NCBI GenBank assembly: GCA_041660605.1
Contig: JBAZWB010000002.1
Coordinates: 1,431 to 65,430, forward strand
Direction of reading: 5' to 3'
Origin: Patescibacteria group bacterium
Lineage (GTDB): Bacteria; Patescibacteriota; Patescibacteriia; UBA10025; JAHIVO01
DNA: 64,000 bases
Position numbers and translations under genes: made by a program. Positions within the stretch are counted from its first letter, which is position 1. The number at the start of each line of letters is the position of its first letter. Of this stretch, positions 12,948 through 19,347 are shown in pieces. The notes under the pieces were generated by a model that worked only from the letters and a program-made list of their open reading frames with translations, searched no databases and was not told where the DNA came from.

Positions 12948-15900
12948 TTAGCGTTTCCAAATATAATTTAATTTCATCCCACTGCCGCCATAATCATAGC
13001 CCTTGCTTAAGCTATGCACTTTTTTTACGGGTGCGTATTCAAGTTCGCCGTTGGATTTCTTTAATTTGTTATTCTGCAATGTCGAAGCGAAACCGCCCGT
13101 ACGGTTCGTTGACGCTCCTTCTACTTTTTCACTCAACACTAAGCCATCAAAGCCATTTTCTCTGGCGAAGTTTATTATCACCGGCGTCAGCTGCTTATAG
13201 CAATCCTCATATGATACCTGCGTTAGCAGGTGTTCGCTGGGGTTCGGGCAATAGAGCAGATATTTTTTACCGTCGCTCTCCTGCATGTTTAAAAGCATAA
13301 CTGTGCCCTCACACGTCTTCGTCTCTTCATTAAACATTACGAACTCAAAATAGTCCTTATTATTCCACATCTCCGTGTTAACTGCGATACAGATACGGGC
13401 CGCGGCGCGCGCGTTAGCCACTTCAGCGGTCTTGCTGAAATAGCCGACAATCTTTCGCGCTGTCTGCTGTTTTTCAACAGTCTTTACGCCTTTCCGCGTC
13501 TGCACTTGATCTTGCTCTGTTATCGTACGATAGGACCCGACTTCGCGCTGGACAACACCGATATCCGCAGCCAGCACTTTCTCCACGGCCTGCAGAGGAT
13601 GAAAAGAATATTCCTGCAGAGTGGCAAGCAATTTTTGCGCTGTGGATGGGTCGGTTATTGCTTGGAGATAGTCACCTTCCTGCGGGACCATTCCTTCGAT
13701 AAACTCCTTTAATGCCGCCTGCGCCTGTGTTCGGTCATTAGCTGATAAACCCTTCAGCATTTCCTGCGACATGCCGATGACGTCATTCGTCACGCGCTTT
13801 ATGACCACCCCGCGGTGTTTTGCGGTATCGGTAATTTTCGATAGCGTTCCCTTGAGCGCCTCCTGCGATACTGCCAGGCGTTCGGTAATTCTTTCAATGG
13901 GCATCGTCTCGTCTGAGCGGTAATGGTCGGCAAGCGCAGAAAGGACCTTTTGCCCCTCTTCATCGCTCTTGAGCGACTGATAGAGCGTTGTCAGCGTCTG
14001 TTTGCCATCCTCAACGAATAACTTGGAAAGAGCATCCCACTGTATATAATCCTTAGTGTCCTGGCTCTCCGAAGCAGAAACCTGATCCGCGGTTCCCTGG
14101 ACAAATTCATTTCCCCAACCGCGCATGTGGTACGCAATGGCAAGATCCGCGATCTCCTGGTCGCTCAGCTCAAGGGGGATCTGCTTACGTTTCCTGTCCT
14201 GCTGATCCATAAGCAATTCGAGTAAATCAGCGCCGTACAAGCGCGCTTTATCTTTTCCCTCAGCCATGAAAGTAGGAAGCTTCATCTTTTCTCTCATTTC
14301 ATCAATAACCTTATACACCGCGTCGGGACTGGCGGCCATGCCTTTGATAGTATCTATGCGCTTCTGATACTGTGCAAGAAGTTCTTCGTAGTTTCCATCT
14401 CTCGGCTGAGTGCGTTCATATCCGCGCACCCCGCTCATGACCATGCGATATCCTTCACGGGCAAATGTATATTGCTCAAGGTGGTCGTTATTATCAGCGA
14501 GTTTTTCATTCTCTCCATACCTGGAATAGTCGCTTTCCGGATACACGCCCCTGATCAAGGCGCGGTATTCCGGAGTTCCGCGTTCTTTTTTCTCCAGAGG
14601 CCGCGCGTGCGCCATATCATCGCTCATGGTGTGCATTTTTTGTATCCATACCTGATCCGTGCTCTCTTGACGGCTTGCTTCATATTGCGGCTGATATTCA
14701 AAACGTATCGGAAAATTATTCTCAATTGCTACGGCTAAAAAATCTATCGCCTTATCAGCAGTCAGTGCGGGATCAACTTTTAACCGCTCAATGAAAAGTT
14801 TCGTATAATCAGGAGCATTGTGTCCAAAACGTTTATACCCGTCAACTGCAAATGCATAAATATTGTCATTTAATAATTCCTGGCCACCAATCCATGGCTC
14901 ATGCAAAAGACGATCATCTATGGCATGGTATTTTTCTATTACAGCGATTCCTTCAGATGCCGGAAGATCTTTCCTGTCTTTTTGAAGTTTAGTTGCAAAA
15001 ACATTCGTGAAGTCAAGCGATTGGCTTCCAAATTTCCCGTATGCCTGCTTCACAAACTGGTAATTATTTTCGTCCACAAGCCATGGGGCGTCAATCCAGT
15101 TGACCGATAAAATTACCGGGTCTATCGCCGAATATTTGTCAATAATATCCTGGGTCTTGCTTACTGCCTCTTCATGCGAAAAACTGGACCGCAGATCAAA
15201 GTATAGTTGGGCGTATTTTTTAGCGCGCCTTTCGTCCTGAAACTTTTCAATTATCTGCTGTACCTTGCCGATCTCTTCCGGGGACGACTTATGCACGCGA
15301 AGGAAGTTGCTCGACATGCGATCCTCATTGTGCTGGCCGGCAAATCTGACCAACATGGTTTTTGCGCGCATAACATCGCCATAATTCACGAATTGACTGA
15401 GATGGTAATAGATTTCTTTGTCAAAACGGTCATCATGCCAATTGCGGCCCGCATATACCGCAAATTCGTGGAGCTTGTTCGTATCATCATCAAGCTGGCC
15501 GAGTTTTTGCTCCTGTTCATAATTTCTATAGCCCCCCAGTGATTTTAAGAGGGAAAATTTATCTCGGAACTCTTTCGACTCGAGGATCGAACGATCAAGA
15601 TGTATCATTCCTGTACCCACGGAAATTATTTTTGATATTTCCCGTTCGAACGATTCACGATTTTCCGGATCAAGGCGCGAGGTGGCATCGGCGATGCGCA
15701 GGAGATGATCCAACCCTTTGGGTAATTCCTCTCCTCGATTTAGAAACGTTTCTCCCAGATCAATCTTTTTAACCGCCTGTCCGTACAAAGCATACAGCCG
15801 CTCCGAGACCTGCCGGCTGCGCTCTATATCCTCCTGGCGTCCGGTAAGAGACGACAGTGCCAGGAATTGCTTGACTGCATCTTCCATGGTCGTGCCTACT

Positions 15901-17596: not shown

Positions 17597-19347
17597 GATG
17601 GTAATACCACACGAATTAGAATTTTTGAATCAGTATGTACTCCGTATTTTTTGCACATGGATTCAAGCTCCTGCAGTACGTTTTTCTCAAAAACACTGTA
17701 ACTGAAATTCTCCTGAGTGCAATTTGCTTCCAACTCTTTTATGGTTCGTTCAGTATAATCCTTCAGTTCATTTTGCATTTCCGGACTGAGACTATTTATA
17801 ATATCAGCGCTCATGGCTGCGCTCCATTCCTTCCTATGTTCACGAAACTCTTTTCCGGCGGAATTATAAATGTAGTTGGAAAGTTCATAAATCTCATTAT
17901 CTGGTAATGATATATTATGCTGACTAAGAATACCTTTGATGCGCTGCTTGAGTATTTCATTATCACTGGTGAAACTATCAGTAAGAAAATCCTGTCGGTG
18001 CATATCACGTGCATTCTCCATTATTAGTATATCAATGTCCGTCCGTGTCTCGGGAGGCAGGGCTTTAACGATTTTTTTTATGAGATCAGCATCCTTTTTA
18101 GTCTCAGCCTTAGAAATCGCTTCGGACCTCTTTTTAGCATTTTCGGTAGGATTAAAGCTGTTATCGTACTTATTCTTTACCAATTCATCAACTATCTGAA
18201 AATCCTCCGGGTGACCGCTTTTTAGGCTATCCGGATCTGAAAAATATTTTTCGCATATTTCCGCCCAATACTCAATAACTCTATTTTCTGCATTCTGATG
18301 CTCATCTTCGTTAGTAATTGACTCAACATAATCTGAGTGATAAGCATTTCCTCCCTGGCAGTAGCGCTCGGTGACTTCAACAAAAAGCTTAAAACGTTCT
18401 TCGGGTGTCAGGGTAATATCAGATCTCCAGTCATGGGCGTGACCCAGTTCGTGATCGGTAACATCGGAAATGTCTCTCAATGGTCTACTGGTTGGCATTA
18501 TATCGATAGACGTTACTCCGCTTGGCTTAAGGCGCGCCCGAGCTGCTTTTTTTTCGCTTTTCATATTATATTGCTCGGGCATGGCCAAATCAACGGAGTC
18601 TGCATTAACTTTATAGATAATTGAATCAACTTCGTCGTTTACCCAGCCTTGCGGATGGGTTTGCACGATAAATTTTTTAAAATCTTCATTAGAATAGCCT
18701 ACCTCCTCAAAACCAACGACTGCCACCTCGGATGTATCCTGTTTCACTTCTTTTTTTTCTCCAATATGAAACGACCCAAGAAAATAATTTACCATATCTT
18801 CGCCATATATTGAAGTTAAATATTCTATATCCTCCTTGTGCTGCTCGCGAAACTCAGTAATTCTTTCAATTCTTTTTTGTTTTTCTTGAGCCATCTGTCG
18901 AATTTGCTTATCCGCCCGCTTGTAATCCGGCGTCATTGCCTTTGTTTCCATCACGCCCATGTCATAAAGCAGTTCATCAAGAGGCTCCCCTAGCCCTTTC
19001 GGAACTTTATCTGTTTGTCGGTATGCTATATCTAATCCAACTAATGACGTAGCGGTAAGGGATCCCCATAACACCAGCCTCGTTAAAACTTTTTTCACTT
19101 TCTCCTTCCCTGTTGCGCGAAAATTCTTCGCGTCAATGGTCTCTAAAGTACCAGTATCATCCTCGGGAAAATCAAAATCCCCCTCAATATCATTTTGCGG
19201 ATCAGGGTCAGGCAAAGTATCGGATAAATTTTTATATAATTCAGAATCTTCCTCAGTGCGCGCTGGCGCATTCGGGCAATCATGCTCTCCGAATTCAACC
19301 GGAAAGCCGCAGTACTGACATTGGTTTGTTGGTCGTTGTTCTGGCAT
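17593..19347 (-). CDS. zinc-knuckle / predicted TM / HExxH (HELGHAHDW) metallopeptidase-like protein (584 aa)
   Basis: MPEQRPTNQCQYCGFPVEFGEHDCPNAP..., hydrophobic segment VLTRLVLWGSLTATSLVGLDIAY, then TDHELGHAHDW. Confidence 0.8.
   Translation of the reverse strand: MPEQRPTNQCQYCGFPVEFGEHDCPNAPARTEEDSELYKNLSDTLPDPDPQNDIEGDFDFPEDDTGTLETIDAKNFRATGKEKVKKVLTRLVLWGSLTATSLVGLDIAYRQTDKVPKGLGEPLDELLYDMGVMETKAMTPDYKRADKQIRQMAQEKQKRIERITEFREQHKEDIEYLTSIYGEDMVNYFLGSFHIGEKKEVKQDTSEVAVVGFEEVGYSNEDFKKFIVQTHPQGWVNDEVDSIIYKVNADSVDLAMPEQYNMKSEKKAARARLKPSGVTSIDIMPTSRPLRDISDVTDHELGHAHDWRSDITLTPEERFKLFVEVTERYCQGGNAYHSDYVESITNEDEHQNAENRVIEYWAEICEKYFSDPDSLKSGHPEDFQIVDELVKNKYDNSFNPTENAKKRSEAISKAETKKDADLIKKIVKALPPETRTDIDILIMENARDMHRQDFLTDSFTSDNEILKQRIKGILSQHNISLPDNEIYELSNYIYNSAGKEFREHRKEWSAAMSADIINSLSPEMQNELKDYTERTIKELEANCTQENFSYSVFEKNVLQELESMCKKYGVHTDSKILIRVVLPS

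Follow-up and report, generated by a model that had tools for sequence, protein, structure and literature searches.

The window analysed here is a stretch of 64,000 nucleotides (nt) from a Patescibacteria group bacterium (assembly GCA_041660605.1, contig JBAZWB010000002.1, positions 1,431 to 65,430), and the system in question is a cassette of three minus-strand genes within it, two of which open with nearly the same 28-residue peptide, referred to below as the knuckle. Gene 1 (17593-19347, minus strand) is an open reading frame (ORF) of 584 residues made up of the knuckle, an acidic linker, a weakly hydrophobic helix at about residues 87-106, a zincin domain of the lethal factor (LF)/MtfA/PPEP type and a helical tail. 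Gene 2 (17129-17596, minus strand) encodes a soluble protein of 155 residues without known domain, and gene 3 (12948-17126, minus strand) a soluble protein of 1392 residues with the knuckle, a long helical variable region, a conserved family core of about 550 residues and a C-terminal GNAT-fold domain. The ORF list carries all three at the coordinates given in an earlier note made from the sequence alone, and the junctions read in the sequence as that note described them, with the start of gene 2 and the stop of gene 1 overlapping as ATGA and the ATG of gene 3 lying 2 nt past the stop of gene 2. Of the translational coupling of all three genes that had been deduced from these junctions, the overlap of genes 1 and 2 is usual in relatives, but the coupling of gene 2 to gene 3 is not conserved, the gap between these two widening to 16 nt in the related contig L002 and to 68 nt in L006.

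The first knuckle copy (gene 1 residues 1-28, MPEQRPTNQCQYCGFPVEFGEHDCPNAP) lies at 19264-19347 and the second (gene 3 residues 1-28, MPEQQPINRCPNCGYPLEIGEHDCPNAP) at 17043-17126, both on the minus strand, and the second is a direct repeat of the first. The two N-termini are 67% identical over 30 residues (BLASTP E = 3e-12) with nothing alike beyond, a hidden Markov model (HMM) of gene 3 matches gene 1 solely in residues 1-33, and the DNA of the two 5′ ends is approximately 80% identical, the likeness running from TTATG to codon 29; the shared start and the unrelated bodies that had been reported earlier are thus borne out at both levels. By DNA segment, the two window copies agree at 13/15, 32/45, and 25/27 positions and are unrelated afterwards. 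The knuckle signature is C-x2-C-G-[YF]-P-x-E-x-G-E-H-x1-3-C, in which C10, C13, G14, P16, H22, and C24 are invariant in 8 aligned copies, and the four putative metal ligands among these (C10, C13, H22, and C24, conserved in 8/8 copies) are set in two short knuckles. The match to the curated model Zn_Ribbon_1 stayed below threshold (E = 0.06, 13.6 bits against a cutoff of 25).

A motif scan of the fetched loci found two knuckles per locus, at the N-termini of gene 1 and of a large third gene, in the window, in L002-L005 (four independent assemblies of one relative), and in L006-L008 (three of another). L015 and L017 likewise carry two copies, and a single copy is present in L001, where the start of gene 1 is off the contig, and in L009, which has no gene 3. 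Paired knuckles thus recur in four or more further lineages, each assembled independently, and the module is present in homologues elsewhere. A back-translated pattern scan of 185,579 species genomes gave 13 matches, six of them in Patescibacteria, with four of these six being pairs 2.1-2.3 kb apart, and a scan of the JGI metagenome set gave 18 pattern matches that amounted essentially to one new lineage (L031) and a family of 280-residue proteins. A word-indexed protein search with a 43-residue knuckle alignment returned four candidates sharing words, none of which scored. The knuckle is therefore real but rare, with roughly a dozen lineages carrying it. The 280-residue proteins have a similar N-terminal knuckle (MFDERNKKCEYCGYPTETGEHHPLC) and are encoded at 1580-2422 of L021, 2228-3070 of L038, 3890-4732 of L040, and 3455-4297 of L043 in a gene context unrelated to the cassette, where the neighbouring ORFs resemble, on visual inspection, TspO and an ArsR-type regulator. 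L021, the sole taxonomically labelled contig with this family, is binned as Gammaproteobacteria; the family is a further body for the tag, possibly in another organism.

Across lineages, several synonymous codons are used at every invariant knuckle residue, and the 5′ regions of both genes fold no better than shuffled controls (z from -0.44 to +0.59), which together indicate that selection acts on the peptide; the knuckle is under purifying selection in both genes. Within single genomes the copies evolve in concert. In L002, 66 consecutive nt (22 codons) are 100% identical between otherwise unrelated genes, the knuckle copies have 94-100% DNA identity, and each copy has its closest DNA relative in the paralogue of its own genome, as is also the case for gene 1 of L015. 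The second copy in L015, on a chimeric stub, is slightly closer to gene 1 of L009 than to gene 1 of L015, and the in-genome copies of L006 and L017 are not closer to each other than to their orthologues. In the window, both copies share a lineage-specific deletion of two codons and near-identical flanks. The central block tends to read CQ[YN]C in the gene 1 copies and CP[HN]C in the gene 3 copies, and since these signatures differ by gene, the copies are old and have been homogenised only episodically. Gene conversion is the process that homogenises them.

The repeat also marks recombination breakpoints. Upstream of the cassette lies a membrane-anchored protein of 642 residues with Big_5 and Peptidase_C39_2 domains (19472-21400, minus strand; identified by Pfam and synteny), and seven lineages have a recognisably homologous spacer of exactly 29 nt from the stop of this C39 gene to the ATG of the first knuckle gene, be that gene 1 or gene 3. 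Because the same spacer stands before either gene, the knuckle segments are direct repeats that bracket a 2.2-kb insertion or deletion comprising the gene 1 body and gene 2. In L015, a chimeric ORF of 71 residues (7037-7252) occupies the place of gene 3; the 5′ end of its knuckle is 90% identical to that of gene 1, and a GEHA microhomology joins the knuckle to a second version, 94% identical, of the final 160 nt of the C39 gene upstream. This chimera shows that the knuckle segment recombines. The knuckle segments have served as the point of exchange for different giant bodies at one fixed site behind the Big_5/C39 gene.

Gene 1 carries the HELGHAHDW motif reported earlier, and the H, E, and H of its zincin HExxH motif (HELGH, H299-H303; 18439-18453, minus strand) are invariant across five homologues of the family. 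An hhalign alignment of gene 1 to the HExxH helix of LF scored 29.6, compared to 10-19 for shuffled controls. The invariant EYWAE (E359-E363, within EYWAEICxxYF; 18259-18273, minus strand) lies 56-60 residues past HExxH and matches the ExxAE of lethal-factor-type gluzincins; by analogy with EFFAE of LF, it is a candidate third zinc ligand, the hhalign alignment to LF ending short of it. Residues E359, W361, A362, E363, I364, and C365 are invariant in the family, and the motifs common to the gene 1 homologues, which come from Kerfeldbacteria and other Patescibacteria, are HE-GH, S-YVE, and E-WAEIC--YF. The modelled fold is a zincin fold similar to that of solved members, with LF as the top, non-significant, Foldseek match, and peptidase Pfam models stayed below threshold, each in a single member (M48, E = 0.029; Reprolysin_3, E = 0.072; M90, E = 0.13). 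Assignment to family M34 was rejected because the profile alignment to the LF catalytic segment was limited to the HExxH helix. Gene 1 is thus an LF/MtfA/PPEP-type zincin fold outside all curated families. Of the transmembrane segment predicted earlier, the hydrophobic helix is present but marginal, as its hydropathy (Kyte-Doolittle, 19 residues) peaks at 1.44 in the window and at 0.89 in the L002 orthologue from Kerfeldbacteria, short of the usual cutoff of 1.6; with so weak a helix, membrane anchoring of gene 1 is uncertain.

Gene 2 orthologues adjoin every gene 1, including the knuckle-less gene 1 of Yanofskybacteria, usually with overlapping stop and start codons. No match to gene 2 was obtained in Pfam or the PDB, and no relative of known function was detected there. 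Its presence beside a knuckle-less gene 1 makes it a partner of the gene 1 body and not of the knuckle. The possibility that gene 2 is the binding partner of the knuckle was considered and rejected, as gene 2 is present with knuckle-less gene 1 and absent where a knuckle-bearing gene 3 stands alone.

CPR (candidate phyla radiation)/Patescibacteria genomes are full of large proteins without assigned function, and gene 3 belongs to a family of such giants. In a word-indexed search, P0002 (52% identity) was the sole close homologue; its contig has the same order as the window, with the tail of gene 1 followed by gene 2 and gene 3. An exhaustive HMMER search with gene 3 residues 293-1392 as the query detected 275 cluster representatives at E ≤ 1e-3, of which 201 also reached E ≤ 1e-10. 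The majority of members have 1,000-3,100 residues and match via their C-terminal ~550 residues, chiefly the last ~200. The conserved core common to the family corresponds to approximately residues 840-1392 of gene 3 (12951-14609, minus strand), with the best-matched stretches at profile positions ~550-1100, and ends in a divergent GNAT-fold domain (approximately residues 1226-1392; 12951-13451, minus strand), which in every case closes the protein, the median distance to the C-terminal end being 3 residues. The order of its elements is that of the GNAT fold, beta1-alpha1-alpha2-beta2-beta3-beta4-alpha3-beta5-alpha4-beta6(-beta7), and its invariant residues are Cys1246, Asn1295-Pro1296 (of PNPS, in the beta4-alpha3 loop), and Asn1341-Arg1342 (of TNR, after beta5). 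The canonical Q/RxxGxG/A motif is absent from the domain, whose corresponding loop has the sequence C-P-N-P-S-E-H; its N and P do not vary among 24 diverse members. PNPS and TNR sit where GNATs hold the acyl donor, so the domain looks like a putative working, divergent site of the acyltransferase type. The earlier statement that gene 3 has no recognisable catalytic motif is therefore superseded by this catalytic-type domain, and the statement that the protein is soluble stands, as no gene 3 has a signal peptide or transmembrane segment.

The rest of the conserved core gave no PDB sequence match and no recognisable domain, and full-length scans of four of the largest family members likewise revealed none. 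Among the 150 members listed, only the window protein and P0002 bear the knuckle, and the two family members seen in context sit alone among housekeeping genes. In front of the core, gene 3 has an internal tandem duplication (residues ~645-790; 14760-15200, minus strand) of two ~57-residue units that are 37% identical (E = 1e-13), of which the P0002 orthologue has just one. Seven members (P0055, P0089, P0090, P0094, P0098, P0100, and P0115) have Trp at many conserved Gly columns of the GNAT domain, as expected where code 25 (UGA = Gly) has been translated with code 4; the family therefore probably spans Gracilibacteria/Absconditabacteria too, and it is probably spread across the CPR. The NCBI name of gene 3 (P0001), ‘hemophore-related protein’, was not reproduced by any NCBIfam model at E ≤ 0.1 and looks spurious.

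The third gene of the relatives falls into at least four types, namely A (the window and L001), B (L002, L016, L018, and L020), C (L006), and D (L017 and L031), which in BLAST and HMMER comparisons are alike in the knuckle only, with no conserved residue past H22. None of the types has a Pfam domain, and the GNAT-domain HMM detected nothing in types B, C, and D. In hhalign comparisons, type B aligned to the GNAT domain over 178 columns (P = 1e-4), and types C and D gave no match; by this profile comparison, the C-terminus of type B is probably a distant form of that domain. The knuckle is thus a discrete N-terminal module on differing bodies, as originally proposed, these being gene 1, four mutually unrecognisable gene 3 bodies, and the 280-residue protein. 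The three genes are not an obligate unit, since genes 1 and 2 occur without gene 3 in L009 and L015 and gene 3 occurs without genes 1 and 2 in L016, L018, L020, and L031. Of these stand-alone loci, L016, L018, and L031 have the knuckle-bearing giant gene directly behind the C39 gene and L020 has it behind CorA. Genes 1 and 2 are found without any knuckle in L010-L012, the gene 1 of Yanofskybacteria being among the knuckle-less. The locus therefore consists of two modules, gene 1 with its overlapping gene 2 and gene 3 on its own, each of which also exists separately. A knuckle variant reading GEHDWSLHP, in which the fourth ligand Cys is replaced and a His follows five residues on, begins gene 3 at L016 3494, L018 930, and L020 4665; its ligand set is possibly CCHH, and it is found only on the stand-alone type B giants without genes 1 and 2.

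The cassette lies in a chromosomal setting, both large proteins being on record from a contig of 960 kb. The window carries tRNAs and GAPDH, and a run of short ORFs at 44-63 kb looks, from the run itself, like a ribosomal-protein block. In the fetched contigs of relatives the neighbourhood consists of GAPDH, Phage_holin_4_2, the Big_5/C39 gene, gene 1, gene 2, and the large gene, followed downstream by CorA (L002-L005 and L009), a C39_2 gene, and LPG_synthase_TM; the Big_5/C39 gene directly precedes the first knuckle gene in nearly every relative, with CorA coming between them in L020. The downstream flank of the window cassette is likewise a membrane-anchored Peptidase_C39_2 protein of 269 residues (12023-12832, minus strand; Pfam and synteny). 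No knuckle and no gene 1 relative was found in viral contig collections, and PADLOC models matched none of genes 1, 2, and 3. A phage, mobile, or defence-island origin was rejected on the basis of these two results and of the conserved chromosomal synteny, and the locus is a chromosomal one of a Patescibacteria genome, vertically inherited within a narrow clade. The three proteins gave nothing significant against Pfam, NCBIfam, PADLOC, and PDB sequences, and the earlier impression that the cassette fits no known defence, secretion, or toxin system is upheld by the empty PADLOC, Pfam, and NCBIfam searches.

The CTAC/GTAG-rich spacer described upstream of the cassette is an imperfect heptamer array, (ACTACCA)x10 in the plus-strand reading (19415-19485; Tandem Repeats Finder), which is GTAG-rich on the coding strand and takes up most of the 124-nt spacer between the Big_5/C39 gene and gene 1. 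It overlaps the final 14 nt of the Big_5/C39 gene. The array is a lineage-specific expansion, as most relatives have the fixed 29-nt spacer. Between the array and gene 1 lies the best sigma-70-like promoter match of the region (TTGAAA, a 17-nt spacer and TG-TATATT; 19356-19384, minus strand), a consensus match only, with 10/12 positions and an extended -10 element, which stops 9 nt 5′ of the gene 1 ATG; if this candidate promoter is used, the gene 1 transcript may be almost leaderless. Several other features were seen near the cassette. In L001, the closest relative, an ORF of 498 residues (4886-6382; starting with MPESQ, with no knuckle and no Pfam domain) begins 5 nt after gene 3 and is absent in the window, where the C39_2 gene comes after gene 3. 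Cys-rich proteins of ~225 residues with an N-terminal hydrophobic helix and no known domain recur downstream of the cassette (window 9809-10495; L002 16828-17505). Upstream of the Yanofskybacteria gene 1 in L010 (2890-7073) are three consecutive LAGLIDADG_1 ORFs. These probably encode homing endonucleases of rRNA introns, which are frequent in CPR genomes.

The earlier reading of the knuckle as a targeting or partner-recognition tag remains plausible as a proposal. The interpretation we favour, tentatively and with somewhat less than an even chance of being right, is that the knuckle is a non-enzymatic, homotypic coupling tag for a protease-like enzyme and a giant acyltransferase-like protein. 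Association of one knuckle with another, or binding of both to one shared partner, would join gene 1 and gene 3 in a complex sited in the cytoplasm or at the cytoplasmic face of the membrane. Where one module stands alone, the tag would self-associate, and conversion would be tolerated or favoured in that identical tags stay compatible. Homotypic association would account both for the tolerated conversion and for the modules that live alone.

Several results weigh against this interpretation. The AlphaFold2 (AF2) model of the knuckle is of low confidence (predicted local distance difference test, pLDDT, ~45-50), its zinc binding and self-association are predictions, and the gene 1 model has a mean pLDDT of 61. 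In the central 45 nt, the window copies are only 71% identical and each is closer to its orthologues, so that identity is not strictly required. The modules lie apart in several lineages, which makes any complex of gene 1 and gene 3 dispensable. If the gene 1 helix did span the membrane, the zincin domain would be outside the cell and unable to meet a cytoplasmic gene 3. No Pfam acetyltransferase model matched any of the 24 GNAT-domain members, the domain profile found no PDB sequence, and a domain without Q/RxxGxG/A could be non-catalytic or use another donor.

A broader version of the coupling-tag interpretation, which we consider an unlikely one, takes in the DNA repeat as well. The ~85-nt knuckle repeat would be the working part of a ‘tag-and-body’ expression site of CPR bacteria, of a kind not described before, behind the Big_5/C39 gene, at which homologous and microhomology recombination swaps giant bodies and the zincin-partner module, and the peptide would be a zinc-dependent homotypic adaptor that assembles the tagged enzymes. 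This would amount to a coupling like that of effector-associated domains (EADs, compared below) outside any NTPase conflict system, in episymbionts whose genomes are minimal.

The alternative that survives best, although still improbable in our estimate, is that the paired knuckles are a by-product of history. In this case an ancestral knuckle-bearing gene 3 would have received the gene 1 body and gene 2 by in-frame insertion directly behind its knuckle, or lost them from there by excision, through recombination in which the ~85-nt segment was duplicated without any common function for the two copies, and the second copy would persist as the start and translation-initiation context of gene 1, refreshed by gene conversion. 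The geometry is what this account calls for, as the copies are direct repeats that bracket the 2.2-kb segment exactly and loci that begin with gene 1 share their 29-nt upstream spacer with those that begin with gene 3. The Yanofskybacteria gene 1 works without a knuckle, the giant-family members elsewhere have none (among the 150 listed), and the conversion tracts are clear. However, six gene 1 lineages keep the four ligands, G, and P unchanged amid variable neighbouring residues and synonymous sites, and the gene 1 and gene 3 copies hold distinct orthologous signatures in the core block. These two observations indicate that the gene 1 knuckle has long been maintained independently and not just copied from gene 3.

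Somewhat less probable is that the knuckle, in the manner of the constant N-terminal domains of polymorphic toxins, is an export or delivery tag which directs giant effector bodies and a protease to the secretion or host-contact apparatus of episymbionts. Giant CPR proteins are often assumed to act in host interaction, a constant short N-terminus precedes at least four unrelated large bodies at one locus, and envelope genes surround that locus (two C39-like peptidases, a holin-family protein, Cys-rich secreted proteins, and LPG_synthase_TM). Yet the gene 3 proteins lack any signal peptide or membrane segment, no known toxin domain is present and nothing immunity-like follows gene 3, and no secretion-system gene was found in the neighbourhood. 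A zinc-folded domain would be an unusual Sec-type signal, and the untagged members of the giant family sit elsewhere among housekeeping genes.

That the shared 5′ sequence is an RNA or DNA element, be it a regulatory RNA structure, an operator for a small RNA or protein, or a translation-initiation signal, with the peptide incidental, is very improbable. The DNA identity does begin 2 nt before the ATG (within TTATG), neither gene has an obvious Shine-Dalgarno sequence, and gene 1 has a possible leaderless start. However, neither 5′ region folds beyond the level of shuffled controls, and the amino acids are conserved, with varying codons at every invariant residue, in a pattern that tracks the zinc ligands. 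An assembly artefact, that is, a collapsed or duplicated 5′ end, has next to no probability, as nothing beyond the repeat itself suggests one, the window copies differ at ~20% of positions, both window proteins are recorded on two contigs, and the arrangement of paired knuckles recurs in many independent assemblies and species from different samples, which excludes it.

No earlier description of the cassette, the knuckle, or the giant family was found in the literature. New here are the way the genes are arranged, the structural class to which the common tag belongs, a clear connection of tag repeats with operon remodelling, and a first fold for a large family of CPR giants. The family, with its 275 previously unannotated cluster representatives, gains its first structural handle in the divergent GNAT fold with an invariant Cys/PNPS/TNR site. 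The locus is also a clean natural case of a tiny, predicted zinc-binding tag kept alike on unrelated enzymes via gene conversion, and it is at this repeat that modules have been gained or lost and bodies replaced. If the knuckle is indeed a homotypic adaptor, the EAD principle would extend to a new structural class and to organisms for which it has no earlier description, and the 28-residue peptide would be a handle for finding partners of otherwise intractable giant proteins. If the tag is merely a recombination scar, the locus would still be a tidy case of operon remodelling mediated by direct repeats. In either case, the locus is real, clean, and testable, its distribution is narrow, and its function is a proposal.

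Compared with known systems, the parts of the cassette are of known structural kinds (zinc ribbon, zincin, and GNAT), none of which passes sequence-family tests. Like the N-terminal zinc ribbons of the Zn_Ribbon_1/zinc_ribbon_2 kind, the knuckle is a short, fully N-terminal C-x2-C ... C/H-x-C, behind which gene 1 has a hydrophobic helix, but its match is sub-threshold, its third ligand is His, and its G-[YF]-P-x-E-x-G-E-H signature is found in about a dozen lineages only. Gene 1 shares the HExxH motif and zincin fold of the LF, MtfA (M90), and PPEP (M34) gluzincins but reaches best Pfam E-values of only 0.03-0.13, in single members, and resembles LF in sequence only along the HExxH helix, so that it is not filed in M34; it is also distinguished by the knuckle, the helix of weak hydrophobicity, an extended helical tail, and a small partner gene that is obligate. 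The domain of gene 3 differs from the GNAT superfamily in having PNPS in place of Q/RxxGxG/A and an invariant Cys in the alpha1-alpha2 region, in having no Pfam or PDB sequence match, and in its constant position at the extreme C-terminus of proteins of 1,000-3,100 residues. As in polymorphic toxin loci, an N-terminal segment stays constant while the unrelated bodies behind it are exchanged at a single locus, with recombination taking place in the constant part. In contrast to them, the constant part of the cassette is only ~28 residues long and there is no toxin domain, immunity gene, linked secretion system, or signal sequence; for want of a toxin domain, an immunity gene, and a secretion link, it is not such a locus.

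The closest parallel is with the EADs of NTP-dependent conflict systems, for which homotypic association has been proposed and of which there are ten families, of alpha or alpha+beta domains (PMC7159879; Kaur, Burroughs, Iyer, Aravind, eLife 2020). As set out there, an EAD is a small, terminal, non-enzymatic domain with a second copy on an enzymatic protein of the same operon, adjacent copies being closer to each other than to their orthologues, and CPR bacteria were left out of the study's statistics (PMC7159879). Against the EADs so described, the cassette lacks a vWA-MoxR, GTPase, or STAND core domain in itself and in its neighbours, and for lack of an NTPase core it falls outside the conflict systems that bear EADs; its tag is also a 28-residue zinc ribbon, with two copies per genome at one locus. 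In common with EADs, a small, non-enzymatic, terminal domain is found on both a zincin and a GNAT-ending giant, on the same strand and 2.2 kb apart, and one tag stands on differing bodies with homotypic coupling as the proposed role. Adjacent copies are clearly closer than orthologues in L002, and in the window this is so only for the flanks and the shared indel. Of the three descriptive features given for EADs in that study, the pattern seen here fits two, and the third in part.

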